The notes under the pieces were generated by a model. That model saw only the letters and a list, made by a program, of their open reading frames with translations, had not been told where the DNA came from and made no database searches. A stretch of DNA of 64,000 bases from NCBI GenBank assembly GCA_045804645.1, contig JBJMMR010000006.1, positions 19,827-83,826 on the forward strand, in the 5' to 3' direction. The translations under genes were made by a program, and so were the position numbers. Source of the stretch: Chloroflexota bacterium. Lineage in GTDB: Bacteria > Chloroflexota > Limnocylindria > Limnocylindrales > CSP1-4. Positions 34,011-61,523 of the stretch are shown piece by piece (the first letter of the stretch is position 1; the number at the start of each line of letters is the position of its first letter).

Positions 34011-34880
34011 TCAGGTGCGGGGCGTCCGCGCCGAACCCGGCCGTCGGCGCGGATAGAGATAATCGACACCGGCCGTCCGCGGCCCGAGCTTCGCGATCGG
34101 CGGGACCTGTCGCTTGAACTCTGCCCCGGCGACCATGAGGTCGACCCGCTCGACCGTGTCCTTCGCGAACCCGAGCGCGGCCATCTCGTCGATCGAGCGG
34201 CGCTTGTCGATCCGCCAGAAGAGCATGCGATCGAGCGTCGGGTAATCGAAGCCGGCCTCGGTCTCGTCCGTCTGACCGGGCCACAGATCGGCCGACGGCG
34301 CCTTCCGGATGATCTCGTCGGGCACGCCGATGGCGGCCGCCAACTGGCGGACCTGGCTCTTGTACAGGTCACCGATCGGGTTGAACGCGCACGCGTTGTC
34401 CCCGAAGACCGTCGTGTACCCGATGAGTGACTCCGTCTTGTTGCCGGTCCCCACGACGAGGCCACCCCACGTCACGGAGCGGTCGTACAGGACCGCCATC
34501 CGCTGGCGAGCCATGAAGTTGCCACGGCGCAGCGAGGAGGCGTCGCTCTCAGGACCGAAGAACCCATCGACCATCGGCGTGATATCGACGAGCTCGGACG
34601 GCGTCCCCAGGCGACGGACGACCTCCTCGGCGTCCTCGCGCGAGGCTGGCGACGAGGTGCGATACGGCATCAGGACGCACAAGAGCTGTTCGGCTCCGAT
34701 GGCGTCGGCGACGAGGAACGCGACGAGGGCCGAGTCGATGCCCCCCGACAGACCGAGGACTGCCCGCTCGAATCCAGCCTGCCGTAGCTGGCCACGGACG
34801 AACTCGCCGATGACCCGCCGCGCGACATCGGTATCGATCGCGAGCTCGGTCGGCAGCTCGAAGGCCACTGGTGCGGTCAT
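34011..34880 (-). CDS. nadE: NAD+ synthetase, synthetase (ATP-PPase) subunit
   Basis: The PP-loop GLSGGIDSALVA and ..GTGNKTESLIGYTT.. are present. The ATG overlaps the stop of the upstream CN-hydrolase gene (ATGA). Confidence 0.9.
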   Translation of the reverse strand: MTAPVAFELPTELAIDTDVARRVIGEFVRGQLRQAGFERAVLGLSGGIDSALVAFLVADAIGAEQLLCVLMPYRTSSPASREDAEEVVRRLGTPSELVDITPMVDGFFGPESDASSLRRGNFMARQRMAVLYDRSVTWGGLVVGTGNKTESLIGYTTVFGDNACAFNPIGDLYKSQVRQLAAAIGVPDEIIRKAPSADLWPGQTDETEAGFDYPTLDRMLFWRIDKRRSIDEMAALGFAKDTVERVDLMVAGAEFKRQVPPIAKLGPRTAGVDYLYPRRRPGSARTPRT

Positions 34881-35866
34881 CCGCCGGAGCCTCCGCTCGC
34901 GCGCCGGAACCCGATCGGATGTGGCGTTCGGTCGCCCGGTGCGACGTCGAGCCCCATCTCCGCTTCGGGATCGCTCGTCGAGTCGTGCGCAAGTCCCGCC
35001 CGTTCAGCCACGATCCGCGACAGCTCTCGGACCTGGAACTCCGGCCGCTCGTCACGTAGCAGTGGCAGCGCCACGCGCTCACGCCGGATATCCGCCGTGG
35101 CGAGGTCGGTGACGAACAGCCCCTCGTCGTACAGCGGCGCCGTGAAGATCGCTGCTCCGGACGGTCCGATGACCTCTGAGCCGCCCCAGAACGAGATCGA
35201 CTCGTCCACGCCGACCCGATTGCAGAACACGACGAACGTCGTCGTCAGCTGGGCGTAGGTCCGCATCAGCGTCCGCCACGACGTGGCCGTCCCGAGACCG
35301 ACCTCGTTCGTCGCCGCGAGGTCTCGGCCGGGCGACGACGAGACATTCACGAGGATCTGCGCGCCGTCGAGCGCGAGGATCTGCGGCACCGTCAGATGCC
35401 AGAAGTCTTCGCAGATCGCGATGCCCATCCCGACGCCGAGTCGCGATGGCACCGCGCGGAGGACATCGCCGTGGGCGAAGAACCGCCGCTCATCGAACAA
35501 CCCGTAGGTCGGCAGGAAGAGCTTGCGATGGACGTGCCGGACCTCCCCGTCCTCGAGCAGCGCCGCGGCGATGAACAGCCGGTGGTCGGCCGATTCCTCG
35601 ACGAACGACACGATGACCGACAGGTCCTCGGTTGCAGCAGCAAGGTCGGCAAGCCGGGGGTCGTCGAGCCGGATCGAGACCTCGGCGGCGAGGTCCTGGA
35701 GCTGGTAGCCGGTCAGCCCGAGCTCCGGGAAGACGACGAGGTCGGCTTCCTTCGAACGGGCCTCGTCGATCAGCTCGTGGTGCCGCGCGAGGTTGGCGTC
35801 GAACTGGCCGAGCGCGGGCGCGATCTGCGCGAGGGCCACGCGCACCGTCTGCATGCGGCCGAGCAT
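34877..35866 (-). CDS. Carbon-nitrogen hydrolase (nitrilase superfamily), probably the glutaminase partner of NadE. An alternative ATG lies at 35854.
   Basis: ..VRVALAQIAP..ADLVVFPELGLTGY.. (Glu) and ..GIAICEDFWH.. (Cys) are present. The gene is translationally coupled to nadE. Confidence 0.82.
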   Translation of the reverse strand: MLGRMQTVRVALAQIAPALGQFDANLARHHELIDEARSKEADLVVFPELGLTGYQLQDLAAEVSIRLDDPRLADLAAATEDLSVIVSFVEESADHRLFIAAALLEDGEVRHVHRKLFLPTYGLFDERRFFAHGDVLRAVPSRLGVGMGIAICEDFWHLTVPQILALDGAQILVNVSSSPGRDLAATNEVGLGTATSWRTLMRTYAQLTTTFVVFCNRVGVDESISFWGGSEVIGPSGAAIFTAPLYDEGLFVTDLATADIRRERVALPLLRDERPEFQVRELSRIVAERAGLAHDSTSDPEAEMGLDVAPGDRTPHPIGFRRASGGSGG

Positions 35867-35882
35867 ACGCGAACCCGACTGC

Positions 35883-35888
35883 TAGGCT
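35883..35888 (+). promoter_or_regulatory. -10-like hexamer TAGGCT, 8 nt upstream of the SBP1 ATG (leaderless or near-leaderless)
   Basis: TAGGCT-acgcgccg-ATG. The whole divergent intergenic region is only 30 nt. Confidence 0.35.
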
Positions 35889-35896
35889 ACGCGCCG

Positions 35897-37675
35897 ATGT
35901 CACGACCCCCACGGCCCGGCCGCCTCCTCGCGGCCGGCTTGGTGACGATCAGCGTCATCGTCGGGTGCGCCGGTCCATCGCCCTCGACGAGCCCCGATGC
36001 ATCCCTCCTCCCTGGCCCGAGCGGGAGCTCAGCGTTCCCGACGGCGCCGCCGACCACGGGCGTGTTCACGCCGATGAAGTACCCAGCGGGAGGGCCAGCG
36101 CCGTGCGAGGAGCCCGCGAGCGCGGACGCCGCGTACGGCCCGTATGCCGGATCGCTCCGGCGCGTCTTCGCGCGGGATGCGTCGACCGTCGTCTTCGAGC
36201 TATGCGATGCCGATCCGGCGTTCCTTTCGAAGATCGCGTCGCCCGCCCTCGCCATCGATGACACTGCGTGGCTGCAGAGCCACGTCGATCCGACCGCGCA
36301 GCAGCAGCCCATCCTGACCCAGGTGAACGGGACCGGCCCGTTCCGACTCGATGCCTGGGACGGCTCTGGCGATATCACCCTGCGCCGGTCCGACACCTAC
36401 TGGGGCACGCCCGCGTTGACGCCATCGATGATCTTCGTCGGCGAGCCGGACGCCGGCCAGCGACTCTCGAAGCTGCGCGAGGGGTCGGTCGATGCGGTCG
36501 ATGAGCTGGCACCAGCCGACGTCGAGGCCGCCGAGGCGAACCCCGACCTGACCCTGACACCGCGCCAGGGTCTCAACACCGGGTACATCGGGTTCGACAA
36601 CCGGTTCGCGCCGTTCGACAACGAGACCGTGCGCCGGGCGATCGCGATCGGCATCGATCGAGCGGCGATCGTGAACGCCAGCTTTCCCCCGGGAGCGCAG
36701 CTCGCGACCCATTTCCTGCCGTGCGCGATCCCGGCCGGATGCGGTGGCGACCCGTGGCCCGAGATGGACGCCGAGGCCGCCCGTGATCTCCTCGCCGATG
36801 TCGGCTTCGGCGACGGCTTCCGCTCCACGATCAGCTTTCCCCAGGAGCCGCGGGACTACCTCCCCGATCCGAACGCGACAGCCGTCGCCCTCCAGTCGCA
36901 ACTGAAGGACCAGCTCGGTATCACGACGACCTTGAACCCGATGCCGTTCGACGACCTTGTCGCGGCGGCCGACTCGGGCAAGCTCGACGGGTTCTACCTG
37001 CTCGGCGCGCGCGCGCGGTACCCCGATGCTGGACTGCTCCTCGATAGCCACTTCGGTCCGGGAGCCAGCCTCCAGTTCGGCAATCGTTTCGATGACATCG
37101 GGCGGTGGCTCGGGCGCGGCCGGACGGGGAACGCCAAAGCGCGCGCCAAGGGCTACGCCGGCGTCAACGACCTGATCCGCAGGCACGTGCCGATGGTCCC
37201 GCTGGCCCACGTCGGCACTGTCGGGGCATTCCGCACCGACGTCACCGGCAAGCAGGCGAGCGCCACCGCGACGGATCGCTTCTCGACGGTCCTCCCCGGC
37301 GACCGCACCCAGTTCGTCTACATGCAGCACGACCGCCCCGGCAGCCTGTTCTGCGCCGACGAGACCGACGATGTCGCGCTGCGGATCTGCGCTCAGCTGT
37401 CGGAGTCGCTCTACCGGCACGACATCCCGGACCCTGCGCTGACTCCGTCCCTCGCGACGGCGTGCAAACCGGACGCCGACCTGACGGTCTGGACCTGCAC
37501 ATTGCGCGACGGCGTGACGTTCCACGATGGGTCGACGCTCGATGCGAACGACGTCGTCCTCTCCTATGCGATCCGTTGGGATGCGGCGCATCCGTTGCAC
37601 CACGGTCGGGAGGGGACGTTCCAGGCCTTCGTCGATCGCTTCGGCGGCTTCCTCCACCCGCCCGCGGAACCCTGA
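35897..37675 (+). CDS. ABC transporter solute-binding lipoprotein, family 5 (DppA/OppA-like), with a circularly permuted domain order
   Basis: Signal peptide and lipobox: MSRPPRPGRLLAAGLVTISVIVGC. Family-5 core: ..NGTGPFRLDAW..YWG... The normally N-terminal module (..LTVWTCTLRDGVTFHDGSTLDANDVVLSY..) sits at the C-terminus. Confidence 0.88.
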   Translation: MSRPPRPGRLLAAGLVTISVIVGCAGPSPSTSPDASLLPGPSGSSAFPTAPPTTGVFTPMKYPAGGPAPCEEPASADAAYGPYAGSLRRVFARDASTVVFELCDADPAFLSKIASPALAIDDTAWLQSHVDPTAQQQPILTQVNGTGPFRLDAWDGSGDITLRRSDTYWGTPALTPSMIFVGEPDAGQRLSKLREGSVDAVDELAPADVEAAEANPDLTLTPRQGLNTGYIGFDNRFAPFDNETVRRAIAIGIDRAAIVNASFPPGAQLATHFLPCAIPAGCGGDPWPEMDAEAARDLLADVGFGDGFRSTISFPQEPRDYLPDPNATAVALQSQLKDQLGITTTLNPMPFDDLVAAADSGKLDGFYLLGARARYPDAGLLLDSHFGPGASLQFGNRFDDIGRWLGRGRTGNAKARAKGYAGVNDLIRRHVPMVPLAHVGTVGAFRTDVTGKQASATATDRFSTVLPGDRTQFVYMQHDRPGSLFCADETDDVALRICAQLSESLYRHDIPDPALTPSLATACKPDADLTVWTCTLRDGVTFHDGSTLDANDVVLSYAIRWDAAHPLHHGREGTFQAFVDRFGGFLHPPAEP

Positions 37676-37845
37676 GATCGCCCTTCTTCGAGCCGCAGCG
37701 AGCCCCTAGCAAAGGTGGGGAAACGGGTGCTAAGGTTCCCGCGCACCGTCGCCGGAACGGACGCCGGCGTCGATCCATGTCCCAGGTTGGTCGGCTCAGG
37801 GAGGATGACGGGCGACCCTCGGGACTTTTAGAGGAGAACCAGCGC

Positions 37846-39582
37846 ATGACTCGTTCTTCGAGCCTGTCGCGCCGGTTGGTGGCCGTCGTCGGCATCGCAG
37901 CGATCGTCGCTGCATGTTCGGGCAGCACACCGTCGGCCAGCACGGCCCCGTCGAGCGCTCCATCGGCCAGCGAGCCGGGCGCGTCGGCATCCGGAGAGGC
38001 ATTCACCGGGATCTCGTATCCCGAATCAGGTGACGCCCCCTGCGGCGTCGCGCCGTACACGGGGACCATCAAGAAGATCACGGCAGTCGACAAGCTGACC
38101 GTCGAGTTCCAGCTCTGTGGCCCTGACGTCGCGTTCCTGCCGAAGGCGGCGTTCTCGACGTTCGGGATCCAGGATTCGGCGTACCTCGAAGCCCACGCAC
38201 CGGACAAGTCGTACCTGACCCAGCCCAATGGGACGGGCCCGTACAAGCTCACCCAGTGGGATACGGGTAACAGGATCGATTTCGAGGCCAACCCCGACTA
38301 CTGGGGCGATGCCCCGAAGGCGCCGAAGGCCGAGCTCCGCTGGAGCGATACCGGCGCGCAGCGACTCGTCGAGCTCCAGTCGGGCTCGATCGACGGGATG
38401 GATAACCCGGGTCGCGAGGAGATCACCAAGATCAAGGCCGACTCGTCCCTGCAGTTCATGGCCCGCCCGCCGATGAACACGATGTACATCGGGATGAATC
38501 GCGCCGTGAAGCCGTGGGACGACGAGAACGTCCGCAAGGCGATCGCGATGGGCATCAATCGGCAGCAGGTCGTCGACAACTTCTATCCGGAAGGCTCGGA
38601 GGTCGCGACCCACTTCACGCCGTGCCCGCCGCTCGTGCCGTTCGGCTGCGAGGGCGACGCCTGGTATGACTTCGACGCGACGGCGGCGAAGAAGCTACTG
38701 ACCGACGCGAACTTCGATTTCTCGAAGACCTATCCGCTGTCGTTCCGCGCGGCGGTCCGTCCATACAACCCCGATCCGCCGGTCATCGCGACCGAGATCC
38801 AGCAGCAGCTCGAGACCAACCTCGGCATCAAGACCTCGATCGACCTCCAGGAGTCGGGCGCCTTCACCAAGGCCGTGACGGCCGGTGAGATGACCGGTCT
38901 GTTCATCTACGGCTGGGGTGCCGACTATCCGGATGCCACGAACTTCCTCGACTTCCACTTCGGTTCGGGGTCGGGCAAGAAGTTCGGAGGACCGTTCGAC
39001 GACATCGCCGCGGCCCTGACGAAGGGTGCGACGTCGGCGGCCGACGCCGACCGGCAGGCTGCCTACAAGGAGGCGAACGACCTCGTCAAGCAGCACGTCC
39101 CGGTCGTGCCGATCGCCCATGGCGCCACCGGCACCGCCTACAAGGCGGATGTCGAGGGCGGCCAGGCATCACCGCTGACCACCGAGATCCTCGCGGACAT
39201 GAAGCCCGGCGACCGCGACACGATGGTCTTCATGCAGAACGCTGAACCGCTCAGCCTCTACTGCGGCGACGAGTCGGACGGCGAGACGCTGCGCGCCTGT
39301 GAGCAGCTGTTCGAGTCGCTGTACGCGTACGAGATCAACGGGACCAAGCCGGTCCCGTCCCTCGCGACCGAGTGCACGCCGAACGACGACCTGTCGACGT
39401 GGACGTGCAAGCTCCGCGATGGCGTCACGTTCCACGACGGCGCGACCCTGGACGCCAACGACGTCGTCACGACGTATGCCGTCCAGTGGGACGCGAAGCA
39501 CCCGCTTCACGTCGGTAACTCCGGCGCCTTCGAGTACTGGGGTGGCCTGTTCGGGGGCTTCCTGAACCCGCCCGCCTCGTAA
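37846..39582 (+). CDS. Second ABC transporter solute-binding lipoprotein, family 5, a paralogue of SBP1 with the same circular permutation
   Basis: GAGGAG lies 9 nt upstream of the ATG. Lipobox: ..AAIVAAC. Core: ..NGTGPYKLTQW..YWG... The C-terminal module reads ..LSTWTCKLRDGVTFHDGATLDANDVVTTY.. Confidence 0.9.
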   Translation: MTRSSSLSRRLVAVVGIAAIVAACSGSTPSASTAPSSAPSASEPGASASGEAFTGISYPESGDAPCGVAPYTGTIKKITAVDKLTVEFQLCGPDVAFLPKAAFSTFGIQDSAYLEAHAPDKSYLTQPNGTGPYKLTQWDTGNRIDFEANPDYWGDAPKAPKAELRWSDTGAQRLVELQSGSIDGMDNPGREEITKIKADSSLQFMARPPMNTMYIGMNRAVKPWDDENVRKAIAMGINRQQVVDNFYPEGSEVATHFTPCPPLVPFGCEGDAWYDFDATAAKKLLTDANFDFSKTYPLSFRAAVRPYNPDPPVIATEIQQQLETNLGIKTSIDLQESGAFTKAVTAGEMTGLFIYGWGADYPDATNFLDFHFGSGSGKKFGGPFDDIAAALTKGATSAADADRQAAYKEANDLVKQHVPVVPIAHGATGTAYKADVEGGQASPLTTEILADMKPGDRDTMVFMQNAEPLSLYCGDESDGETLRACEQLFESLYAYEINGTKPVPSLATECTPNDDLSTWTCKLRDGVTFHDGATLDANDVVTTYAVQWDAKHPLHVGNSGAFEYWGGLFGGFLNPPAS

Positions 39583-39604
39583 CCTCACGGTTCGGACATC
39601 GATC

Positions 39605-39635
39605 GGACAGGGACGCCCTTGCGGCGTCCCTGTCC
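39605..39635 (+). terminator. Perfect 13-bp stem / 5-nt loop hairpin between the SBP2 gene and the permease genes (intra-operon attenuator or mRNA stabiliser)
   Basis: GGACAGGGACGCC-cttgc-GGCGTCCCTGTCC. There is no U-tract. Confidence 0.55.
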
Positions 39636-39672
39636 GCTATCAACGGCACACTGAGGGGACCGAACTCCCCGG

Positions 39673-40749
39673 ATGACCCGATTCATCCTCCGTCGCCTGG
39701 CGCTGACGATCCCGGTGCTGTTCGGGATCTTGTTCCTCGTGTTCGCCCTCGCCCGACTCGTCCCCGGGGATCCGTGCAGAGCGGTGCTCGGCGAGCGCGC
39801 GACCGACGTCGTCTGCGATGCGTACGCGAAGCGCAACGGGCTCGACCAACCGATCCCGGCCCAGTTCGCGATCTATGTCGGCCAGGTGGCGACGGGCGAT
39901 CTCGGCAACTCGTTGAAGCTCTCGCGGCCGGTCGGCCAGATGCTGATCGACCGGCTCCCGACAACGGTCGAGCTGACGCTACTGGCGATGTTCTTCGCCG
40001 TCATCGTCGGCATCCCGCTCGGGCTGTGGTCGGCCGTCCGCCACAACTCGAAAGCGGACGTCGGCACGATGGTCTTCGCCAACCTCGGCGTGTCGATCCC
40101 GGTCTTCGTTCTCGGCCTGCTGCTGGCCTATCTCTTCGGTGTCGTCTTCAAGGAGACGCCGTTGGCGCTACCGCCATCGGGTCGCCTGAGCTCGGGCGTC
40201 CGCGTCGAGACGATGGTCCAGGTGTGGGGCCTGAAGGGGCTGACCGGACCGCTGAAGGGCCTGCTTGACTTCCTGTCGGGGATCTACATACCGACCGCCA
40301 TCATCACCGGCCAGTGGAACGCCGCCGTGGACGCGTTCCGTCACCTGCTGCTTCCGGCGCTCGCGTTGTCGACCATCCCGATGGCGATCATCGCGCGCAT
40401 CACCCGCTCGAGCCTCCTGGACGTCCTCGGTCGCGACTACGTTCGAACCGCTCGCGCCAAAGGACTCAAGGAGCGCTCGGTCGTGCTTCGCCACGGCGCA
40501 CGAAACGCGCTCCTGCCCGTCGTGACGATCATCGGTCTGCAGCTCGGCGCACTGCTGTCGGGGGCGGTCCTCACTGAAACGGTGTTCAACCTGGCAGGGG
40601 TCGGCCGGACGCTGTATGAGGCGATCACGGGCAGGGATTACGTCGTGATCCAGGGCTTCACGCTGGCCATCGCGGTCATCTACGTGGTGGTGAACCTGCT
40701 CGTGGACCTGTCGTACGGCATCCTCGACCCGCGCGTGCGCCAGCAATGA
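39673..40749 (+). CDS. ABC peptide/nickel-type permease (DppB/OppB-like)
   Basis: MTRFILRRLALTIPVLFGILFLVFAL..LVPGDP.., with the EAA-loop region ..YVRTARAKGLKERSVVLRHGARNALLP.. Confidence 0.9.
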   Translation: MTRFILRRLALTIPVLFGILFLVFALARLVPGDPCRAVLGERATDVVCDAYAKRNGLDQPIPAQFAIYVGQVATGDLGNSLKLSRPVGQMLIDRLPTTVELTLLAMFFAVIVGIPLGLWSAVRHNSKADVGTMVFANLGVSIPVFVLGLLLAYLFGVVFKETPLALPPSGRLSSGVRVETMVQVWGLKGLTGPLKGLLDFLSGIYIPTAIITGQWNAAVDAFRHLLLPALALSTIPMAIIARITRSSLLDVLGRDYVRTARAKGLKERSVVLRHGARNALLPVVTIIGLQLGALLSGAVLTETVFNLAGVGRTLYEAITGRDYVVIQGFTLAIAVIYVVVNLLVDLSYGILDPRVRQQ

Positions 40750-41705
40750 GCGGCGGCGGGCCGATCGCGGGCGGTGTGACGACGACCGACGGCCTCCTCG
40801 AGACGGGGCGGCCGACGAAGCCTGCGAGCCTGTGGCGCGACACCGGAGCGAGCATCCTCCGGCAGCGCTCGGCGGTGGTCGGCCTCATCCTGCTGATCGC
40901 GCTCGTCCTGATGGCGATCTTCGCCCCGGTCATCGCCACGCACGACCCGAACAAGTCGCTTCTCGGGCAGCCGGGCGAGCAGCGTCGCGTCGGGCCGTGC
41001 ATCCATCTCCTCGGTTGCCCCGCGGACCAGGCACAACACCTGTTCGGGACCGACGGCAATGCCCGGGACGTGTACAGCCGGGTCGTATACGGAGCTCGCA
41101 CGTCGCTGACCGTCGGCCTTGGCGCTGTCACCTTCGCCATCATCATCGGCACCGCCATCGGCGCGATCGCCGGGTTCGTGACCGGATGGGCGGATAACGG
41201 TTTGATGCGTCTCATGGACGTCGTCCTCGCCTTCCCATCATTGCTGCTCGCGATCGCGATCGTCACCGCCGCCGGGAGAAGCCTGTTCAACGCGTTGGTC
41301 GCGATCGCGATCGTGTCGATCCCCGTCTATGCCCGGATCGCCCGTTCCGCCGTGCTCACGACCCGCGAGCAGGACTTCGTCACGGCCTCGCGGGCCCTCG
41401 GTGAGTCCTCGATCGGCATCCTGACCCGGCGGATCCTGCCGAACTCGTTCACGCCGCTCGTGGTCCAGGGCACGCTCGACATCGGGACAGCGGTCCTCGG
41501 CATCGCCGCCCTTGCCTTCATCGGCGTCACGGGCGACCTATCGAATCCGGAATGGGGCTCGATGATCGGGCTGGAGAAGGACCAGCTATTCAACGCGCCG
41601 CACATCATCCTGGCGCCGGGTATCGCGATCACGATCACCGTGCTCGCGTTCAACCTGCTCGGCGACGGGCTCCGCGATGCGCTCGATCCGAGGCTCAATC
41701 GATGA
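40746..41705 (+). CDS. ABC peptide/nickel-type permease (DppC/OppC-like)
   Basis: ..DPNKS.., ..[21 protein letters not shown].., ..[12 protein letters not shown]... The ATG overlaps the upstream stop (ATGA). Confidence 0.9.
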
Positions 41706-42955
41706 CCGACGAGCAGCCGCCGCCCGGCACGCCGCTGCCCGCCACGCCGCTGCCGGGTAGCGCGCCGACGCCCGGTGCCGCGATCCCCGAAACCACGGAC
41801 GGGGCCGAGCCGACGATCGTGGTCAAGCCGAACGCCGCGACATCGATCCTCGACCCGTCGGCCCAAGGCAATGTCATCGAAGAACTCGTTCCGGCCTCGC
41901 ATCGCCGCCCGAAGCACGAGCGCGGCGAGCGACCGCTGCTCGAGGTCGACGGGCTGCGGACGTCGTTCTACACGCGCGAGGGCGTGGTCCGAGCGGTCGA
42001 TGGCATCGACTTCCATGTCGATCGCGGCGAGATCATGGGGCTCGTCGGCGAGTCCGGCTGCGGCAAGAGCGTCACCAGCTTGTCGATCATGCGCCTCGTC
42101 GCGAACCCGGGACGCATCGAGGGCGGCCGCATCCTGTTCGACGGGCACGACCTGCTGACGATGTCCGACGAGCAGATGCGCCACATCCGCGGCGATCGGA
42201 TCAGCATGATCTTCCAGCAGCCCCAGTCCTCGCTGAATCCGGTGTGGGATGTCGGCAAGCAGATCGGCGAGGTCCTCGAGCTGCACCGTGGGATGAAGAA
42301 GGGTCCGGCGCGAGACCGGGCGCTCGATCTGCTGCGGATGGTCGGCATCCCGGATCCAAAGCGGCGCCTCGACTCGTTCCCGCACGAGCTGTCGGGCGGC
42401 ATGGCCCAGCGCGTGATGATCGCGATGGCCCTCGCGTGTGAGCCCGAGCTGCTGATCGCCGACGAGCCGACGACCGCGCTCGACGTGACGATCCAGGCGC
42501 AGATACTCGACCTGATGCGCAACCTCCGCGACGAGACCGGGACGGCGATCATCCTCATCACCCACGACCTCGGTGTCGTCGCCGAGATGTGCGATCGCGT
42601 CGCGGTGATGTATGCCGGCGAGATCGTCGAGCAGAGCGACGTCACGTCGCTCTTCCGTCGTCCCAAGCATCCATACACCCAGGGTCTCATCGCGTCGATC
42701 CCGGTGGTGGGGTCCGTCCAGGACGAGCTGAGGGTCATCCCCGGTACCGTCCCGAACCTGATCGACCTCCCGCCGAGCTGTCGGTTCGCGCCACGCTGCC
42801 TGACGCGCATCGAGAAGGACGTGACGCTCGCGACCGAGCTCCATCCCGAGCTGCGTCCGGTGGGTCCGGGTCATGACGTGCGGTGCTGGGTCTACCACGA
42901 CGCCGACGGCGACCCGATCGCAGAGGATGTCGGGGCCGTGGGAGCCGAGACGTGA
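41702..42955 (+). CDS. ABC ATPase (DppD/OppD-like) with a ~80-aa Pro-rich N-terminal extension
   Basis: Walker [26 protein letters not shown], and the C-terminal oligopeptide-ATPase Cys motif ..[10 protein letters not shown].. are present. The ATG overlaps the upstream stop (ATGA). Confidence 0.88.
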
Positions 42956-44001
42956 CCGCGTCCGCGCCGCTCGTCGAGGTCACCGATCTCGTCAAGCACT
43001 TCCCGATCGCTGGCGGCGTCATCCATCGGACGCAGGGTTGGGTGCAGGCGGTCGATGGCGTCACCTTCGACGTTCAACGAGGCGAGACGCTCGGCCTGGT
43101 CGGCGAATCGGGCTGCGGCAAGACGACGGTCGGCCGGCTGTTGCTCCGGCTCATCGAGCCGACCTCCGGGACGATCCGGTTCGACGGCCAGGACATCACG
43201 ACGTTGAAGGGGTCGGCGCTCAAGCGCTACCGCCGCCGTATCCAGATCATCTTCCAGGACCCGTATGCGAGCCTCGACCCGCGGACACCGATCGGCGACA
43301 GCATCGGCGAGGGCCTGCGGATCCACGGGATCGGCACCCCGACCGAACGACGCGCCAAGGTCGCCCGGATGATGGACATGGTCGGGTTGCAGCCTTACCA
43401 CGCCCGACGCTATCCACACGAGTTCAGCGGCGGCCAGCGCCAGCGGATCGGGATCGCTCGCGCACTCGTCCTGGAGCCGGAGCTCGTCGTTTGCGACGAA
43501 CCAGTCTCGGCGCTCGACGTGTCGATCCAGGCGCAGGTCCTGAACCTGCTCAAGTCGCTCCAGCGCGACCTCGGGCTGACCTACGTGTTCGTCGCTCACA
43601 ACATGGGCGTTGTGGAGCACATCAGCGACCGGGTGGCGGTGATGTACCTCGGCCGCATCGCGGAGATCTCCGAGCGTACGGCGCTCTTCCGACAGCAGGA
43701 ACACCCCTACACCGTCGCACTCATGTCGGCGATCCCGGTCCCCGACCCCGAGATCCGCCGTCAGCGGGTGATCCTGACCGGTGACGTCCCGAGCCCGGTC
43801 AACCCGCCGTCGGGTTGTCGGTTCCATCCGCGCTGTCCATTGCGGGCGGCACTAGGGAACCCGGAGATCTGTGCGAGCGATGAGCCGCAGCTCGACGATG
43901 TCGGGGGCGACCACCTGGTGGCGTGCCACTTCCGGGGTCAGAAGGCGCCCGCCCGTATCGCGCACACGTCGACGGTGGAGGCGATCGCAGCCGGCGGCTG
44001 A
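42952..44001 (+). CDS. ABC ATPase (DppF/OppF-like), GTG start
   Basis: [33 protein letters not shown] and ..[10 protein letters not shown].. are present. The GTG overlaps the upstream stop (GTGA). Confidence 0.9.
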
Positions 44002-44070
44002 CAGTAGCGGTAGCGGCGAACCGAGACGCCCGCGGCGACGGCGGAGTCCGCGGAAGACCGATCACGCAAG

Positions 44071-44158
44071 ATGCGCCGGGGGCATACGGACCCCTTCGTT
44101 CGGAGGGCATGCCCCCGCTGCATGATGAGCAAGTGGGCGACGCGTAAGTCGCATCATG
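44071..44158. terminator. Two adjacent long imperfect hairpins in the gap between the convergent ABC operons
   Basis: Hairpin A: ATGCgcCGGGGGCAT...ATGCCCCCGctGCAT (44071..44123). Hairpin B: CATGATG..GCGAC-gcgtaa-GTCGC-ATCATG (44121..44158). Confidence 0.45.
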
Positions 44159-44168
44159 GGCAGTCGCC

Positions 44169-45497
44169 CTACTGCAGCGGCGACTCAGGCGGCTTGGCCG
44201 CTCCGTCCGTCCCTGCCGAGGCGTCTGTCCCATCGCCGTGGCCAGCGCTTGTCGTTGCCGCGCCACCGCTCGTTCCCGCGCCTGTGCTCGTTGCCCCGCC
44301 GCCGGTCGGCGGACCGCCGATGACGGTCTCCGCGATGTCGACGGTCTGCTCGAGCGCCTGCGCCCCAGCGAGCTCGGGTCGGATCGTCTTGAGCGCCGCC
44401 TCGGGGGTGCCGCGCCGGACCGGGCTCATCTCGATGTGGCTGACGCCGACATCCGAGGCTTGGGCCTGCTCTGCGAAGTGGCAGGCAGCCCCGTGGTCGC
44501 CGGTAAGCGTCCGGAGTGGCGGATCGATCGTCCGGCACTGCTCCGGCTGTCCGAGCCGCTCATAGAGCCAGCACCGGGTGTGGAAACGGCAGCCTTCGGG
44601 TGGGTTCACAGGGCTCGGGACATCGCCGGTGAGGATCACCCGCTTCCGCTTGCGCTCCAGCTCCGGGTCGGGGACCGGCACGGCAGAGAGCAGTGCCCGC
44701 GAATATGGATGGCCGGGGTTCGCATACATGACGTCGGGCGGACCGATCTCGACGATCTTGCCGAGGTACATCACCGCCACCCGGTCGCTGATGTGCTTGA
44801 CGACGGACAGGTCGTGGGCGATGAACAGGTAGGTCAACCCGAGCTGGTCACGCAGGTCAGTCAGCAGGTTGAGGACCTGCGCCTGGATCGACACATCGAG
44901 CGCCGAGATCGGCTCGTCGCAGACGATGAACTCGGGCTCGACGGCGAGGGCGCGCGCGACCCCGATGCGCTGCCGCTGGCCACCGCTGAACTCGTGGGGG
45001 TAGCGGTTCACGTACTTCGGGTCGAGGCCGACGATGCGCAGCAGGTCCTGGACGCGCTGCTTCTTCGCGTCGCCGGACGCGAGGTGATGCACGTCGATAG
45101 GCTCGCTGATGATCGAACCTACGGTCATCCGCGGATCGAGCGACCCGTAGGGGTCCTGGAAGATGATCTGCATCCGGCGGCGCATCTTCCGCAGCGCGTC
45201 GGACTTGAGGGTCCCGAGATCGATACCGTCGAAACGGACGGTTCCCGAGGTGACATCGCGGAGTCGGATCAACGCCCGCCCCGTCGTGCTCTTGCCGCAG
45301 CCGGATTCCCCGACGAGTCCGAGCGTCTCGCCTTGGCGGACCTCGAACGTGACGCCGTCGACGGCCTTCACCGTCCCGACTTCGCTCTGGAAGATCCCCT
45401 GGCGGATCGGGAAATGGACCTTCAGATCCTCGACCTGGATGAGGTCCGGCTGGTCCGCGGTCGGGGCGAGGCCAGGCTCGGGCATGCTGACGGTCAC
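44169..45497 (-). CDS. ABC ATPase (OppF-like) with a ~100-aa Gly/Thr/Ala-rich C-terminal tail. Start candidates are 45497 (GTG, GTGA overlap), 45506 and 45485.
   Basis: [33 protein letters not shown] and ..[10 protein letters not shown].. are present. The tail reads ..[49 protein letters not shown]. Confidence 0.88.
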
Positions 45498-46600
45498 GGG
45501 ATCCATCCATCTGGCTGCGTCGCCCAGCACCGCGCGTAGTGTGATGCGCCACGCTCGGTCAGCTCGGGCTCGTCCTCGCGGCAGATGTCGCGCGCGAACC
45601 GACAGCGCGGCTCGAACCGGCAGGCGTCAGGCGGCTGGATGAGCAGGGGCGGGAGTCCCTCGATCGTCCGGAGGCGATCGCCTCTGACATCGTCGAGCCT
45701 CGGCAGCGAGTCGAGGAGACCCCATGTGTAGGGCATCCGCGGCCTCTCGAAGAGCTCGTCGACGGTGGCGGTCTCGACGATCCGGCCGGCGTACATGACA
45801 TTGACGCGGTCGCACATCCCGGCGGCGATGCCGAGATCGTGGGTGATCATCAGGACGGCCGTGTGGAACTCGTCCGACAGCCGTTCGATCAGCTCGAGGA
45901 TCTGTGCCTGGATGGTCACGTCGAGGGCGGTCGTCGGCTCGTCGGCAAGGATGAGCTTCGGGTCGCAAGCGAGAGCGATCGCGATCATGACGCGCTGGCG
46001 CATCCCGCCAGAGAACTGGTGCGGGTAGTCGTTCAGCCGATCCTTCGCCCGCGGGATTCCGACCTTGCCGAGCAGCTCAGCCACGCGGTCCCGCGCCGCC
46101 GAGCTCGAGAGCCCCATGTGCTGACGGATCGACTCGGCGATCTGGTAACCGATCGTGAGCGTCGGGTTGAGGCTCGTCAGCGGGTCCTGGAAGATGAAGC
46201 CGATCTCCTTGCCGCGGAGATGGCGCATCTCGTCGTCGTTCATCTTCAGGACATCGATCCCGTCGAAGATGACCTCGCCGGCAACGATGCGGCCCGGTGG
46301 GTTCGGCACGAGGCGAGCGATCGACAGCGCCGTGACGCTCTTCCCGCAACCGGACTCCCCGACGAGCCCGAGCGTCTCACCGTAGCCGAGCTCGAACGAC
46401 ACGTCGTCGACGGCCTGGACGACACCGTCAGGCGTGAAGAAGTGCGTCGAAAGGTTGCGGACCGTCAGGAGCTTGTCAGCCTTCTGGCCCGACTCGGCTC
46501 GCGGCTCGGTCGGTGTCTGCGTCCGCCGTGCATCGTCCGGCGAGACCTCGATGATGCTCGGGGCGTCCGGCTCGGTCATCGTGTCGTCGACGGCACCCAC
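45494..46600 (-). CDS. ABC ATPase (OppD-like)
   Basis: [27 protein letters not shown], ..[10 protein letters not shown].. Confidence 0.9.
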
Positions 46601-47545
46601 CTACTGCTTGCCCTTGAGCTTCGGGTCGAGCGCATCGCGCAGACCGTCGCCGAGGAACGTGAACCCGATGAGGGCGAGTGCGATCGCGATCGCGGGGAAC
46701 GTCACGAGGTGGGGCTCCGAGCGGATGAACTTCTGACCTTCCGCGATGAGGCTGCCCCACGACGCGCGCGGCGGCTGCACGCCGATGCCGATGTACGCGA
46801 GCGTGGCCTCGGCGAGGATCGCTGCCGGGATGCCGAGCGTGATCGCGACGATGATCGGCCCCATGCCATTCGGCAGCAGGTGGCGGGTCACGATCTTCCG
46901 GTCGGACACGCCGATGGCCCTCGCGGCCTCGACGAACTCGGTCTCCTTGAGTGCCAGCATCTGACCTCGGACGAGCCGCGCCACGGTGACCCACGACGTG
47001 ATTCCGATCGCGATGAACACGAGCAGCAGGCCGTCGAGTGCCTGTCCGAACGGCGTCTCCCGGAACGCGACCGAAAGCAGGATGATGAACAGCAGGTCGG
47101 GGAACGCGTAGATGATGTCGGTGAACCGCATCAGCAGGTTGTCTGTTCGTCCACCGAACCAACCGGCCAGCGCGCCGACCGGGACGCCGATGAGGATGAT
47201 GACGACCTGGACGACGAACGCGACGCTGACGCTGATCCGCGCCCCATCGAGCAGCCGGCTCAGCAGGTCGCGGCCGAGCTGGTCCGTGCCGAGGATGTGG
47301 CCCGGTGAGCCGGGTGGTAGCGGTCCGTGACCTCCCGCGAGCACGGCCTTCAGGTCCTGCTGGGAATACGGGTACGGCGCGAGCAACGGCCCGAAGACGC
47401 CAAGGAACACGAGCGTGATGACGAGGATCAGGCCGACGATCGCGAGCCGGTTCTTGCGAAGCCGACCCCATGCGTCGCGCCACAGGCCGGTCGCCGGCCG
47501 GGCACGAACGGCACCTACCTGGGCGCTGGCAGCTTGAGTGGTCAT
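46601..47545 (-). CDS. ABC peptide-type permease (OppC-like)
   Basis: ..GTDQLGRDLLSRLLDGARISV.., ..EFVEAARAIGVSDRKIVTRHLLPN.. Confidence 0.9.
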   Translation of the reverse strand: MTTQAASAQVGAVRARPATGLWRDAWGRLRKNRLAIVGLILVITLVFLGVFGPLLAPYPYSQQDLKAVLAGGHGPLPPGSPGHILGTDQLGRDLLSRLLDGARISVSVAFVVQVVIILIGVPVGALAGWFGGRTDNLLMRFTDIIYAFPDLLFIILLSVAFRETPFGQALDGLLLVFIAIGITSWVTVARLVRGQMLALKETEFVEAARAIGVSDRKIVTRHLLPNGMGPIIVAITLGIPAAILAEATLAYIGIGVQPPRASWGSLIAEGQKFIRSEPHLVTFPAIAIALALIGFTFLGDGLRDALDPKLKGKQ

Positions 47546-47561
47546 GGTGGTGCTCCCGTCC

Positions 47562-48479
47562 CTAGCTGTACCGGATCCGCGGATCGATGTAGGCGTACAA
47601 CACGTCGACCACGACGTTCAGGAAGGCCACCGTGAAGGCGTACAGGATCGTCATCGCCATCAGCAGGCTGTAGTCGCGCTGGCTGATCGCCGAGACGTAG
47701 AAGCGGCCGATCCCCGGCACGCTGAAGATGGTCTCGATGATGAATGAGCCTGTGACGAGGAACGCGAGCGTCGGCCCGAGGATGGTGACGACCGGGATGA
47801 GCGCGTTACGGATCATGTGGCGCGAGACGACGTCCCGCCCACCGATGCCCTTGCTCTGGGCCGTCCGGATGTAGTCCTTGCGGGTCACCTCGAGCATCGA
47901 GGCACGTGTGTACCGCGCGATGACGGCGATCGGGAAGCCGGCCAGGGCGACGGTCGGTAAGACCCAGTATTGCGGCCCCTTCCAGCCGCCCGTCGGGAAC
48001 CAACCTAACCCGATACTGAAGACGACGATGAGGAGGATCGCCAGGACGAAACTGGGCGTGGCGATGCCGATGATCGAGATCGACGTCGAGAGGTAGTCCG
48101 GCCAGCGGTTGTGACCGAGAGCCGCGAATATCCCGAGCGGTATCCCGACGAGGACCGACAGCGCGAAGGCCATCACGCCGAGCTGGAACGTCACGCCGAT
48201 GCCGTCGCCGATGATGTCGTTGACGCGGCGGTCTCGGGACCGGTACGACGGGCCGAGATCGCCGGTGACGAACCCACCTGCCCACTGGACGTACTGCTCG
48301 TAGAGCGGCTTGTCGAGCCCGTATTGGGCGTTCAGGCGAGCCTGGACGTTGGCGGGCAAGCGCTTTTCAGCGTCCCACGGCCCACCGGGCACGGCGTGCA
48401 TGAGGAAGAACGTGATGACCGAGACCGCGAACAGCACCGGGATGATCCACAGGATCCGCCGAGCGAGGTAGTTGATCAC
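47562..48479 (-). CDS. ABC peptide-type permease (OppB-like), GTG start
   Basis: MINYLARRILWIIPVLFAVSVITFFLMHAVPGGP.., ..YIRTAQSKGIGGRDVVSRHMIRNALIP.. Confidence 0.9.
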   Translation of the reverse strand: MINYLARRILWIIPVLFAVSVITFFLMHAVPGGPWDAEKRLPANVQARLNAQYGLDKPLYEQYVQWAGGFVTGDLGPSYRSRDRRVNDIIGDGIGVTFQLGVMAFALSVLVGIPLGIFAALGHNRWPDYLSTSISIIGIATPSFVLAILLIVVFSIGLGWFPTGGWKGPQYWVLPTVALAGFPIAVIARYTRASMLEVTRKDYIRTAQSKGIGGRDVVSRHMIRNALIPVVTILGPTLAFLVTGSFIIETIFSVPGIGRFYVSAISQRDYSLLMAMTILYAFTVAFLNVVVDVLYAYIDPRIRYS

Positions 48480-48529
48480 GGTCTCACCAGCTTTGTGTCA
48501 GACCCCAATGTGTTCGGTCGATGATGCAC

Positions 48530-48561
48530 GATGGGCCGGCCCCGTGTGGAGCCGGCCCATC
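48530..48561 (-). terminator. Perfect 11-bp stem / 10-nt loop hairpin between the SBP3 gene and the permease genes
   Basis: GATGGGCCGGC-cccgtgtgga-GCCGGCCCATC. It occupies the same position in its operon as the hairpin at 39605..39635. Confidence 0.5.
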
Positions 48562-48580
48562 ATCTGGTCGTCGGTGACGA

Positions 48581-50347
48581 CTAGTGCGCGAGGATCCGGA
48601 TCGTCTCCGGGAACTCGTCGCCTGGGTTGTTGTGGTCGATCGGGGTGACCTGCTCGCCGTCAACCCAAGGCTTGACAACGGTCGCGAACGTCCGATAGAG
48701 GAGCGGTAGGTACGCCGCATCTTCTGACAGCATCTTGTCCGCCTGTGCGTAGAGCTGCGCCTGCTTGTCGGCGTCCTGCTCGACGGCCGCCTGCTTGAGC
48801 AGCTCGTCGAAGGCGGGGTTGCAGTACTGGACGTTGTTGTTGCCGCCACCGCAGGTGAAATTGCCATCGAGCTGGTTATTCGCGTGCGGGTAGTCGGCAC
48901 CCCAGGCGTCCCTAGCGAGGTCATACTCACCGGCGGTCCGCTGGGTCAGGAAGACGCTGAACTCGCTACCGACCTGGTCGGTCTTGAGCCCGAACGCCTG
49001 GTTCCACGCCTCGGCCAGGAAGGCGACGCGCGGTTCATGGCCGGCGCCGGTATTGAAGCCGAACTTCAGCGCCGGGATGTCGGCCGCACTCGAGTAGCCG
49101 ATCGCCTGCAGCGCCTTGTCCATGTGCGCCTTGGCGTCGTCGAGGTTGAAGGGGTACGGGTTGATCGAGTCATCGTGACCCGGCAAGCCCGGCATGATGA
49201 AGCTGTTGGCGACCTGGCCGATGCCAGAGAACGTGGCGTCGATGAACGCCTGCTTGTCGATCGCCTCAGTCAGCGCGATGCGGAAGTCCTTGTTCACGGT
49301 CGGGCACGTGTGCTCGTCCGGGCAGCGCTTGAGCTTGCCCTTGCCGGACGGATCGACGCCGTTGTTGAAGTCGTACTGGGCGATGCCGAGGGTCGGGATC
49401 TCCGAGTACTGGTCGGCGAACGCGGGGTCGTTCTTGATCCGGTTGATGTCTTCGTCCGGAACCGGATAGACAGAGTCGACTTCGTCGGCCTCGTAGGCAC
49501 GCTGTGCGTCGGCGAGCTCAGCGAAGATCGGCATGTCGATCTCAGTCAACGTCGGCTTGGTGCCGATCCAGTTCGGGTTCGGCTTCAGGACGATCTGGGC
49601 GTTGTGGTCCCAGCTCTCGACCGTGAACGGGCCCGACGCAACGTAGTTGCCGGTCTCGGTGGCACCCTTCGAGGTGATCCACTTCTCCTGCATCGGGACC
49701 GTCACCCACATCCCCGTGACAGCAAGGAAGTACGTCGCGGGGATGGCGAGCTTCACGACGAAGGTCTTGTCGTCCGGCGCCGAGACGCCGACCTTGTCGA
49801 GCATCCCTTCGATCTCGGAGTCCGACGGGAGCTTCTTCGGGTCGATGCTGAGTAGGTCACCGGCCCCTTCGACTTCCTTGAGGACGTAGTTGTAGGGAGC
49901 CGGGTTGCGTGGGTCGAGCAGACGCTTCCAGCTGAAGACGTAGTCGCCAGCGACGATCGGGTCGCCGTTGCTGTACTTGGCGTCCTTGAGATGGAACGTG
50001 AGCGTCTTCGAATCCGGCGAGACGTCCCACGACTCAGCAAGCTCCGGGACGATCTTCAGATCCTTGTCGACGTAGGTGAGACCGCGCTGGACCGCGACGA
50101 GGACCGCGGTCGACTGCGAGTCCTGCGCCAGGTTCGGATCGAGCGTCGCGGGATCCTGGATCAGCGGCCAGCGGATGACCTGATCCTCGGCGAGATCCGC
50201 CGAGGCAGCGGGCGATTCGCCGCCGGAGGCGGCCGGCGACTCTCCGGGCGCCTGGCTGGCAGGCGCTTGCGTCGCGCTCGAGCCACCGCACGCGCTCGCC
50301 ATGAGGGCGAACGCGCCCAGGAGGGCGAGCAGACGTTTCTGTGTCAT
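48581..50347 (-). CDS. ABC transporter solute-binding lipoprotein, family 5, with canonical (non-permuted) domain order
   Basis: Lipobox: MTQKRLLALLGAFALMASAC. The N-terminal module ..DPATLDPNLAQDSQS..VPELAESWDVSPDSKTLTFHLKDAKYSNGDPIVAGDYVFSW.. comes directly after the signal peptide. Confidence 0.92.
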   Translation of the reverse strand: MTQKRLLALLGAFALMASACGGSSATQAPASQAPGESPAASGGESPAASADLAEDQVIRWPLIQDPATLDPNLAQDSQSTAVLVAVQRGLTYVDKDLKIVPELAESWDVSPDSKTLTFHLKDAKYSNGDPIVAGDYVFSWKRLLDPRNPAPYNYVLKEVEGAGDLLSIDPKKLPSDSEIEGMLDKVGVSAPDDKTFVVKLAIPATYFLAVTGMWVTVPMQEKWITSKGATETGNYVASGPFTVESWDHNAQIVLKPNPNWIGTKPTLTEIDMPIFAELADAQRAYEADEVDSVYPVPDEDINRIKNDPAFADQYSEIPTLGIAQYDFNNGVDPSGKGKLKRCPDEHTCPTVNKDFRIALTEAIDKQAFIDATFSGIGQVANSFIMPGLPGHDDSINPYPFNLDDAKAHMDKALQAIGYSSAADIPALKFGFNTGAGHEPRVAFLAEAWNQAFGLKTDQVGSEFSVFLTQRTAGEYDLARDAWGADYPHANNQLDGNFTCGGGNNNVQYCNPAFDELLKQAAVEQDADKQAQLYAQADKMLSEDAAYLPLLYRTFATVVKPWVDGEQVTPIDHNNPGDEFPETIRILAH

Positions 50348-61447: not shown

Positions 61448-61523
61448 TGGTGGGCGATACTGGATTCGAACCAGTGACCCCGCGGATGTGAACCGCGTGC
61501 TCTAACCACTGAGCCAATCGCCC
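61448..61523 (-). tRNA. tRNA-Val (anticodon CAC), 76 nt, with genomically encoded CCA
   Basis: The minus strand reads GGGCGAT-TG-GCTC-AGTGGTTA-GAGC-A-CGCGG-TTCACAT-CCGCG-GGGTC-ACTGG-TTCGAAT-CCAGT-ATCGCCC-A-CCA. The cloverleaf was folded by hand. Confidence 0.93.

Follow-up and report, generated by a model that had tools for sequence, protein, structure and literature searches.

In Escherichia coli DppA, a family-5 (cluster C) solute-binding protein (SBP), Arg355 binds the carboxylate of the dipeptide and Asp408 its amino group (mature numbering; R383 and D436 of the precursor) (PMC8566422; PMC12136057), and in the transporter complex both of them contact Glu41 and Arg42 in the scoop loop of the permease DppB (PMC12136057). 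A natural circularly permuted binding lipoprotein is known from Treponema pallidum, where Tp0684/TpMglB-2 is the founder of a proposed "Cluster Bc" (PMC4990184). We analysed a 64,000-nucleotide (nt) stretch of a Chloroflexota contig (JBJMMR010000006.1), hereafter the window, in which two adjacent genes encode family-5 solute-binding lipoproteins, SBP1 and SBP2; all coordinates are window positions unless another contig or protein is named. An earlier note on this DNA had proposed that in both proteins the canonical N-terminal module has become the C-terminus, and the results of the current analysis bear this out. The explanation that we consider best, with a probability of about 0.87 for the whole of it, is that SBP1 and SBP2 are permuted cluster C receptors of the Dpp-type ATP-binding cassette (ABC) importer encoded downstream, and that they arose by duplication, fusion and truncation.

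Chain order of SBP1 and SBP2

PF00496, the Pfam model of family 5, recognises SBP1 at 195 bits and SBP2 at 250 bits (gathering score used as cut-off, 32.4), and each whole protein matches it in two stretches, the larger of which, in SBP2, places protein residues 71-377 on positions 59-366 of the hidden Markov model (HMM). When the parts are scanned alone, the C-terminal 133 residues of SBP2 match positions 1-53 (E 1.8e-14, 54 bits, against the same cut-off of 32.4), the C-terminal 134 residues of SBP1 fall on positions 2-49 (E 2e-12) and residues 51-445 of SBP2 match positions 59-366. The outcome is the one the earlier note had predicted for a permutant, namely two matches with the C-terminal ~133 residues hitting the start of the HMM, and neither SBP1 nor SBP2 is collinear with the model from position 1 to position 368. 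SBP3, a lipoprotein encoded in the second, Opp-type operon of the window (48581-50347, minus strand), matches HMM positions 1-367 in a single collinear stretch, in line with the canonical order that had been ascribed to it. The coordinates and peptides on which the proposal was built are correct, with the module starting at residue 469 of SBP1 (nt 37301) and at residue 456 of SBP2 (nt 39211).

Comparison with proteins of solved structure gives the same arrangement. Aligned to E. coli DppA (1dpe, mature numbering), SBP2 residues 75-444 correspond to DppA 124-496 and residues 486-568 to DppA 30-118. A junction profile, made from a diverse set of 22 junction fragments and searched against Protein Data Bank (PDB) chains, aligns its positions 60-168 (SBP2 459-567) with DppA 2-117 at E ~1e-28; against HbpA, positions 2-54 fall on residues 459-511 and positions 58-167 on residues 7-123. 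The HbpA alignment leaves few profile positions unmatched, and therefore the canonical C-terminal strands run almost directly into the canonical first strand. The PDB chains match the profile either in the module only or in two stretches, with one displayed alignment in reversed order, and the search returned no PDB chain with a single collinear stretch across the junction.

The order of SBP2 is found without rearrangement inside a tandem duplicate. P0225, a metagenomic protein of 1202 residues (L081, 1609-5217), is a fusion of two canonical units that are 57% identical to one another, and SBP2 93-578 is collinear with its residues 203-669, over the junction between copy 1 and copy 2 (32% identity, E 2e-62), as is SBP1 113-585 with residues 206-663 (E 9e-53). 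The parts of SBP2 can also be placed on single units, residues 75-455 on copy 2 (671-1043) and residues 455-578 on the first module (55-178). The breakpoint is precise, given that the last residue of SBP2, 578, corresponds to P0225 residue 669 and SBP2 residue 75 to P0225 residue 671. P0341 (1208 residues), which represents a second cluster of fused doubles, can likewise be aligned to SBP2 across its copy junction; doubles thus occur in at least two clusters.

The matches of body and module to the family-5 references are far beyond chance. Two segments homologous to the references occur in swapped order, and the swapped order is collinear with a tandem duplicate; judged from these alignments, SBP1 and SBP2 are circular permutants of the DppA/OppA-type (cluster C) fold. 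The two proteins are 42% identical to each other and collinear over their full length. Both have, as read from the sequence, a lipobox at Cys24 behind a hydrophobic stretch, which agrees with the export and tethering of cluster C proteins, and SBP1 has a low-complexity Ala/Ser/Pro stretch after the lipobox Cys like that of SBP2. The earlier statement that nothing is duplicated or missing holds for the canonical parts, which end and resume at P0225 669 and 671, and does not hold for the whole chain, to which a conserved extension of 24 residues (SBP2 51-74) has been added. This extension has no counterpart in canonical proteins and lies outside the DppA and P0225 alignments. The idea that it is a leftover duplicate of the C-terminal tail was rejected, as the likeness is visual only, the extension falls outside every alignment to a canonical protein and support was not found.

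Conservation and distribution

More than 100 full-length homologues, 63-93% identical to SBP2, cover 100% of its length, and the named ones among them are from Candidatus Limnocylindrales. When 1.84 billion representatives of clusters formed at 50% identity were searched with a probe confined to the junction (SBP2 400-578), 119 clusters matched at E<=1e-30 and 484 at E<=1e-10. The best 150 representatives comprise 64 full-length proteins with a junction-spanning match that ends at the C-terminus, and most of the others are fragments. A survey that covered each species by one genome gave at least 570 stretches that code for a relative, and the best 80 of these at least 570 loci were examined. 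Nearly all of the 80 are collinear with the query over about residues 1/71-578, and one of them (L001) encodes a protein 97% identical to SBP2. All but one of the 80 are labelled Chloroflexota, the labels of the metagenome-assembled genomes being Limnocylindria, Anaerolineae, Ardenticatenaceae and Chloroflexales. The rotated order is therefore the normal form of this protein across a large Chloroflexota clade, in hundreds of species, and the survey of homologues that the earlier note had called for shows the permuted order to be widespread. Source annotations of these homologues are generic, of the kind "ABC transporter / peptide-nickel substrate-binding protein".

The lone exception in label, L044 (contig DATLVO010000201.1, Verrucomicrobiia), carries the same arrangement of NadE, CN-hydrolase, SBP and permease genes, with flanking genes 82-84% identical to those of the window, and is probably a mis-binned Limnocylindria contig. 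In the long proteins P0137, P0158, P0241, P0123, P0184, P0168 and P0222 the permuted domain is C-terminal, and some of them have extra C-terminal domains. The N-terminal parts of these fusions include a Ser/Thr kinase (P0137, P0158), zinc-ribbon repeats (P0241), TIR, caspase with FHA, and a Leu/Ile/Val-type binding domain. The N-terminus of P0241 looks kinase-like by eye; Pfam gave no kinase domain there.

Predicted fold and cysteine pairs

An AlphaFold2 model of SBP2, computed from a 32-sequence alignment, is a confident single fold with a mean predicted local distance difference test (pLDDT) of 87 and a predicted template modelling score (pTM) of 0.83, in which only residues 1-50 are disordered. 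The relocated module is modelled mostly at pLDDT 90-98 over residues 490-550, with lower values (81-88) at 471-480 and after 551. Its secondary structure runs strand, helix, four strands, two helices, which we take to be the order of the canonical N-terminal region. Searched against the PDB with Foldseek, the model finds DppA, HbpA/GbpA and SapA as its best matches, with a probability of 1.00. A sequential alignment takes in only about 390 of about 507 columns, at target-normalised TM-scores of 0.60-0.70, and such a partial alignment is expected if the last 120 residues fill the place of the first 120.

In the proposed topology, the lipobox Cys and a flexible tether would lead into the mature fold at about the equivalent of DppA 124. 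The chain would continue to the canonical C-terminal strands, pass through a connector of ~13 residues into the normal first strand, and end with what are canonically the first ~120 residues. By the domain definitions of OppA and DppA, the new termini would fall in "domain II", the accessory domain, at a distance from the hinge.

Eight Cys other than the lipobox Cys are common to SBP1 and SBP2, four of them in the module, as the earlier note had said. We tabulated these eight columns over 222 aligned family members, and their occurrence is strongly paired. Both Cys of 260-268 are present in 164 members and neither in 58, with the first only and the second only in 0 each; for 510-521 the corresponding numbers are 156, 66 and again 0 and 0. 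The pair 473-485 is complete in 189 members and absent in 32, with the first only in 0 and the second only in 1, and the pair 66-91 is complete in 206, absent in 3, and reduced to the first Cys in 10 and to the second in 3. This co-occurrence points to four local disulfides, none of which would link the module to the body. The nearly universal 66-91 pair would, to judge by its covariation, tie the first hairpin to the new extension at the N-terminus, and 31 of the 222 members keep this pair only. The module pairs are absent from many relatives, and therefore the new topology appears to be independent of disulfides in the module. The suggestion that disulfides staple the new topology is thus not supported, although the eight Cys are shared by the paralogues as described.

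Partner proteins and ligand anchors

Both permease genes and both ATPase genes of an Opp/Dpp-type importer lie directly downstream of SBP2 (39673-44001). Among the best 80 loci, nearly all that are long enough have the permuted gene followed by DppB- and DppC-type permease genes, and those that are longer still usually have both ATPase genes (DppD, DppF) as well. The association with Opp/Dpp-type permeases and ATPases that characterises cluster C is thus found in the window and in the related loci. In most of the 80 loci the permuted gene is the sole binding-protein gene of the operon; a pair of SBP1-type and SBP2-type genes was found in 7 only (L002, L003, L012, L013, L014, L018, L049). The paralogues share their breakpoint and the tandem is confined to these 7 loci, and the duplication therefore postdates the permutation. 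On this comparison, the SBP1/SBP2 tandem arose later, when a gene that was already permuted became duplicated in a particular lineage, and is not a relic of the permutation.

In the alignment of SBP2 with DppA, R355 and D408 fall on R305 and D360 of SBP2, such that both ligand anchors are kept. Across the family, position 305 is Arg in 167 of the 222 members and position 360 is Asp in 185 of them. The DppB-type permease of the window has Gly-Glu-Arg at residues 40-42 (nt 39790-39798), in the same numbering as E41/R42 of E. coli DppB. Owing to the kept R305 and D360 and the Gly-Glu-Arg of the permease, we infer that SBP2 is a working small-peptide receptor with DppA-like docking; it would capture a small peptide via Arg305 and Asp360 and dock on the permease, in which the Glu41-Arg42 scoop loop is kept. 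SBP1 keeps the Arg anchor and has Arg at the position of Asp408 (GARARYPD, residues 370-377, nt 37004-37027), a motif that is also present in the SBP1 orthologues of L014 and L049. With Arg in place of Asp, SBP1 probably supplies this permease with another ligand than SBP2 does. The function of both proteins is probably unchanged in kind relative to that of the canonical proteins. The DppA equivalog of NCBIfam (NF043070) scores SBP2 at 163.7 bits and SBP1 at 84.5 bits, short of its cut-off of 1005, and among the curated NCBIfam equivalogs, including those for DppA, OppA, NikA, SapA and GsiB, no cut-off is reached by SBP1 or SBP2. We therefore do not name SBP1 or SBP2 DppA, nor do we treat them as DppA orthologues.

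Origin of the rotated order

For the comparison of chain orders we divide the fold into three segments, N for the canonical first ~120 residues, A for the equivalent of SBP2 71-290 and B for the equivalent of SBP2 298-445. Canonical proteins have the order N-A-B and SBP1 and SBP2 the order A-B-N. The closest canonical-order relatives that we found are also from Chloroflexota. In P0328 (710 residues), the module (87-182) and SBP2 478-576 share 43% identity, and the body (186-543) shares 32% with that of SBP2; for P0225 the values are 36% for the module and 32% for the body. The fused doubles, together with these canonical relatives in Chloroflexota, fit a route of duplication, in-frame fusion and loss of the outer parts. 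We propose that a canonical gene was tandem-duplicated and fused in frame, that the first N-module and the last body were then lost, and that this would have happened once, in an ancestor within Chloroflexota, with the duplication into SBP1 and SBP2 following afterwards. The earlier note had favoured the same general route, which the doubles and a second permutation support, and had seen a sign of it in the tandem of SBP1 and SBP2, which is too late for that role.

The second permutation is seen in P0136 and P0381 (575-578 residues), in which a lipobox signal is followed by the equivalent of SBP2 298-574 and then by that of SBP2 71-290, giving the order B-N-A. At least ~60 clusters formed at 90% identity are collinear with this order at 100% coverage, on contigs of up to 594 kb. 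P0433, of the A-B-N order (L083, 7001-8722), and the P0381 type (L082, 7001-8737) are 84% identical over B-N and 73% over A. The operons around them are orthologous, with the genes for two ATPases, the SBP and two permeases in this succession and a ferritin-like gene further downstream; the ATPases are 79-81%, the permeases 78-80% and the ferritin-like genes 75% identical. The internal join of P0136 keeps an N-terminal extension of the A-B-N type, including its Cys, which indicates that the same process, acting once more, turned A-B-N into B-N-A. The AlphaFold model computed for P0381 is of low confidence (pLDDT 62, pTM 0.64), probably because the underlying alignment is shallow and made up of close relatives. 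We lean slightly towards the view that these proteins form a natural permutation series, in which N-A-B, A-B-N and B-N-A are all working transporter binding proteins, the doubles are surviving intermediates and the latest rotation is very recent. If this is true, the series would permit the origin and the cost of permutation in a large multi-domain protein to be reconstructed and replayed experimentally.

Alternative explanations

The C-terminal module could in principle stem from a gene-calling error, or be a 5' fragment that misassembly or a frameshift has joined on from an adjacent SBP gene, for SBP1 and SBP2 stand in tandem, high-GC metagenome assemblies do yield frameshift fusions, and a few representatives (P0144, P0147, P0163, P0178) go out of frame past the module. 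However, both paralogues share the order, with an in-frame stop immediately after the module, and the same order recurs in the more than 100 close homologues, the 64 full-length representatives and the 80 loci, which come from different assemblies and methods; most of these loci have a single SBP gene and thus no neighbour that could act as donor. We regard an artefact as negligibly probable, in agreement with the earlier judgement that it was unlikely. A biological variant of the same idea is a mosaic, in which the ancestor lost its own N-module and a fusion then brought in the 5' part of another SBP gene, a paralogue. Tandem family-5 paralogues are many in Chloroflexota, the same possibility has been raised for the permuted part of TpMglB-2 (PMC4990184), and a self-duplicate and a close paralogue are not strictly separable from sequence. 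A mosaic nevertheless seems improbable to us, as module and body share their closest canonical relatives (P0328 and P0225), the breakpoint is exact to ~1 residue, and the second permutation demonstrably reuses the parts of the same gene, at 84% and 73% identity. The reading of SBP1 and SBP2 as permuted receptors that arose by duplication, fusion and truncation has to contend with several observations that speak against one or other part of it. In the direct comparison of SBP2 with SBP3, the body matches at E 2e-15 and the module only at E 0.076; SBP3 is too distant for a direct test, and the homology of the module therefore rests on DppA-like proteins and on profiles. The double P0225 was seen on one contig, flanked by genes for SHMT and for a family-B DNA polymerase and outside an ABC operon, and, being only 32% identical to SBP2, is an analogue of the intermediate and not the ancestor. 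The replacement of the Asp anchor makes a peptide ligand uncertain for SBP1.

This replacement, an Arg where an Asp should bind the amino group, also speaks for the view that SBP1, SBP2 or both are no longer transport receptors and have become sensors or binding modules for non-peptides. The scores far under the DppA, OppA and NikA equivalog cut-offs and the fusions to signalling domains among the relatives point in the same direction. Against this, both genes head a complete DppBCDF-type operon whose arrangement is conserved in the related loci, SBP2 has both ligand anchors and the permease has the scoop-loop Glu-Arg, and we give the sensor function little credence. A different question is whether the permutation was adaptive and not neutral, in that the lipid tether, or a fused transmembrane or signalling domain, would be attached at a loop of the accessory domain instead of at the canonical N-terminus, which would change the orientation of the tethered protein towards the permease in a monoderm envelope. 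Every member seen is a lipoprotein or fused at its N-terminus, the permuted domains are C-terminal in Ser/Thr kinase, TIR, caspase-FHA and Peripla_BP_6 proteins, the permuted form has displaced the canonical one in this operon across a large clade, and a tethering rationale has been proposed for the permuted TpMglB-2 (PMC4990184). Yet canonical-order family-5 domains are likewise found in lipoproteins (SBP3) and in fusions to kinase and other domains (P0368, P0370), and the B-N-A order, with yet another N-terminus in an orthologous operon, speaks against the site of the terminus being critical. We consider an adaptive cause of this kind doubtful.

Features of the locus

The coordinates of the genes of the permuted-SBP operon and of the segments of SBP1 and SBP2 are collected in Table 1. 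Upstream, on the minus strand, the genes for a CN-hydrolase (34877-35866) and for an NAD synthetase (34011-34880) are separate, with a 4-base overlap. The pair resembles a split glutamine-dependent NadE and is a conserved divergent neighbour of the permuted-SBP operon in many Limnocylindria loci. The second Opp-type operon (44169-50347, minus strand) is convergent with the first and encodes two ATPases, two permeases and SBP3; its ATPase at 44169-45530 has a C-terminal tail of ~60-80 residues rich in Gly, Thr and Ala. In the permuted-SBP operon, the C-terminal regions of the ATPases (42700-42955 and 43700-44001) contain Cys motifs resembling the [4Fe-4S] sites that E. coli DppD and DppF have (PMC12136057), with four Cys in the second ATPase (CRFHPRC...C...C) and only three in the first. 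A scan of 35400-44600 for promoters and terminators gave no signal exceeding the shuffled expectation. Rfam models, applied to the whole window at the gathering threshold, had as their sole match a tRNA gene (61451-61523, minus strand).

Table 1 Genes of the permuted-SBP operon and segments of SBP1 and SBP2
Feature	Window position	Strand	Residues	Remarks
SBP1	35897-37675	+	592 aa	Permuted family-5 solute-binding lipoprotein, as judged from alignments
SBP1 signal peptide and lipobox IVGC		+	1-24 (Cys24)	Hydrophobic stretch read from the sequence
SBP1 body			from ~87	
SBP1 relocated N-module	37301-37672	+	469-592	
SBP2	37846-39582	+	578 aa	Permuted family-5 solute-binding lipoprotein, as judged from alignments
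SBP2 signal peptide, lipobox VAAC and Ala/Ser/Pro-rich tether	37846-37995	+	Cys24; tether 25-50	From the sequence; pLDDT <50 for residues 1-50
SBP2 family-specific N-terminal extension	37996-38067	+	51-74	Contains Cys66; pLDDT ~91
SBP2 body	38068-39180	+	75-445	DppA 124-496; PF00496 positions 59-366; holds R305 and D360
SBP2 connector	39181-39219	+	446-458	Between the C-terminal strands and the first strand of the canonical fold
SBP2 relocated N-terminal module	39220-39579	+	459-578	DppA 2-118; Pfam positions 1-53 and flanks
DppB-type permease	39673-40749	+		Syntenic in nearly all related loci of sufficient length
DppC-type permease	40746-41705	+		
DppD-type ATPase	41702-42955	+		Start inferred: likely ATG at 41702, overlapping the permease stop codon
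DppF-type ATPase	42883-44001	+		Coordinates are the limits of the open reading frame

Comparison with known systems

The predicted fold, the family and the probable function of these proteins are known ones, and it is their topology that is undescribed as far as the searched literature and the PDB reach. In agreement with the earlier note, whose author knew of no permuted family-5 SBP, none was found among PDB sequences, and a full-text literature search, with most subscription journals outside its coverage, did not find a permuted family-5, OppA or DppA protein. The classification and annotation of cluster C assume a fixed chain order, while the standard peptide-transporter receptor of this entire clade has a rotated one; Pfam reports the domain as split, and domain-architecture filters will misjudge such genes. 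A three-domain fold of ~500 residues would tolerate new termini in its accessory domain and, in a sister clade, also in the second lobe. Such sites point to naturally validated positions at which peptide-binding proteins could be given new termini or an inserted domain, a help in the design of biosensors. Canonical relatives, doubles and two permutations in succession make the family an unusually complete source of material on duplication, fusion and truncation, and its relevance to protein evolution and to the structural biology of transporters lies chiefly in the doubles and in the recent second permutation within orthologous operons.

The best matches of SBP1 and SBP2 in both sequence and fold are DppA (E. 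coli and Yersinia), HbpA (GbpA, Haemophilus) and SapA (PDB 1DPP, 1DPE, 5F1Q, 3M8U, 3TPA and 7OFZ). As in DppA, the same two segments cover the fold, SBP2 keeps the Arg and Asp anchors and the partners are of the DppBCDF type. They differ from DppA in that the equivalent of DppA 124-507 comes first and that of 1-118 last, and in being lipoproteins with as many as four local Cys pairs and 24 extra residues at the N-terminus. TpMglB-2 resembles them as a tethered ABC binding lipoprotein that has the canonical N-terminal strands of its N-lobe at the C-terminus. It is, however, a type I (cluster B) sugar binder, whereas SBP1 and SBP2 match family 5 (cluster C) only, and its permuted part is ~13% identical to the canonical N-terminus and has a large insertion, while the SBP2 module is matched at E ~1e-28 with exact breakpoints. 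Engineered permutants of periplasmic binding proteins, made as biosensors, likewise indicate that bilobed binding proteins tolerate new termini; these are laboratory constructs, mostly of maltose-, ribose- and amino-acid-binding proteins, rather than natural proteins of family 5. The closest canonical relatives found are the family-5 proteins and doubles of the Chloroflexota, of which P0328 has the canonical order and P0225 and P0341 have two canonical units per chain, and it is within these doubles that the order of SBP2 is contained.

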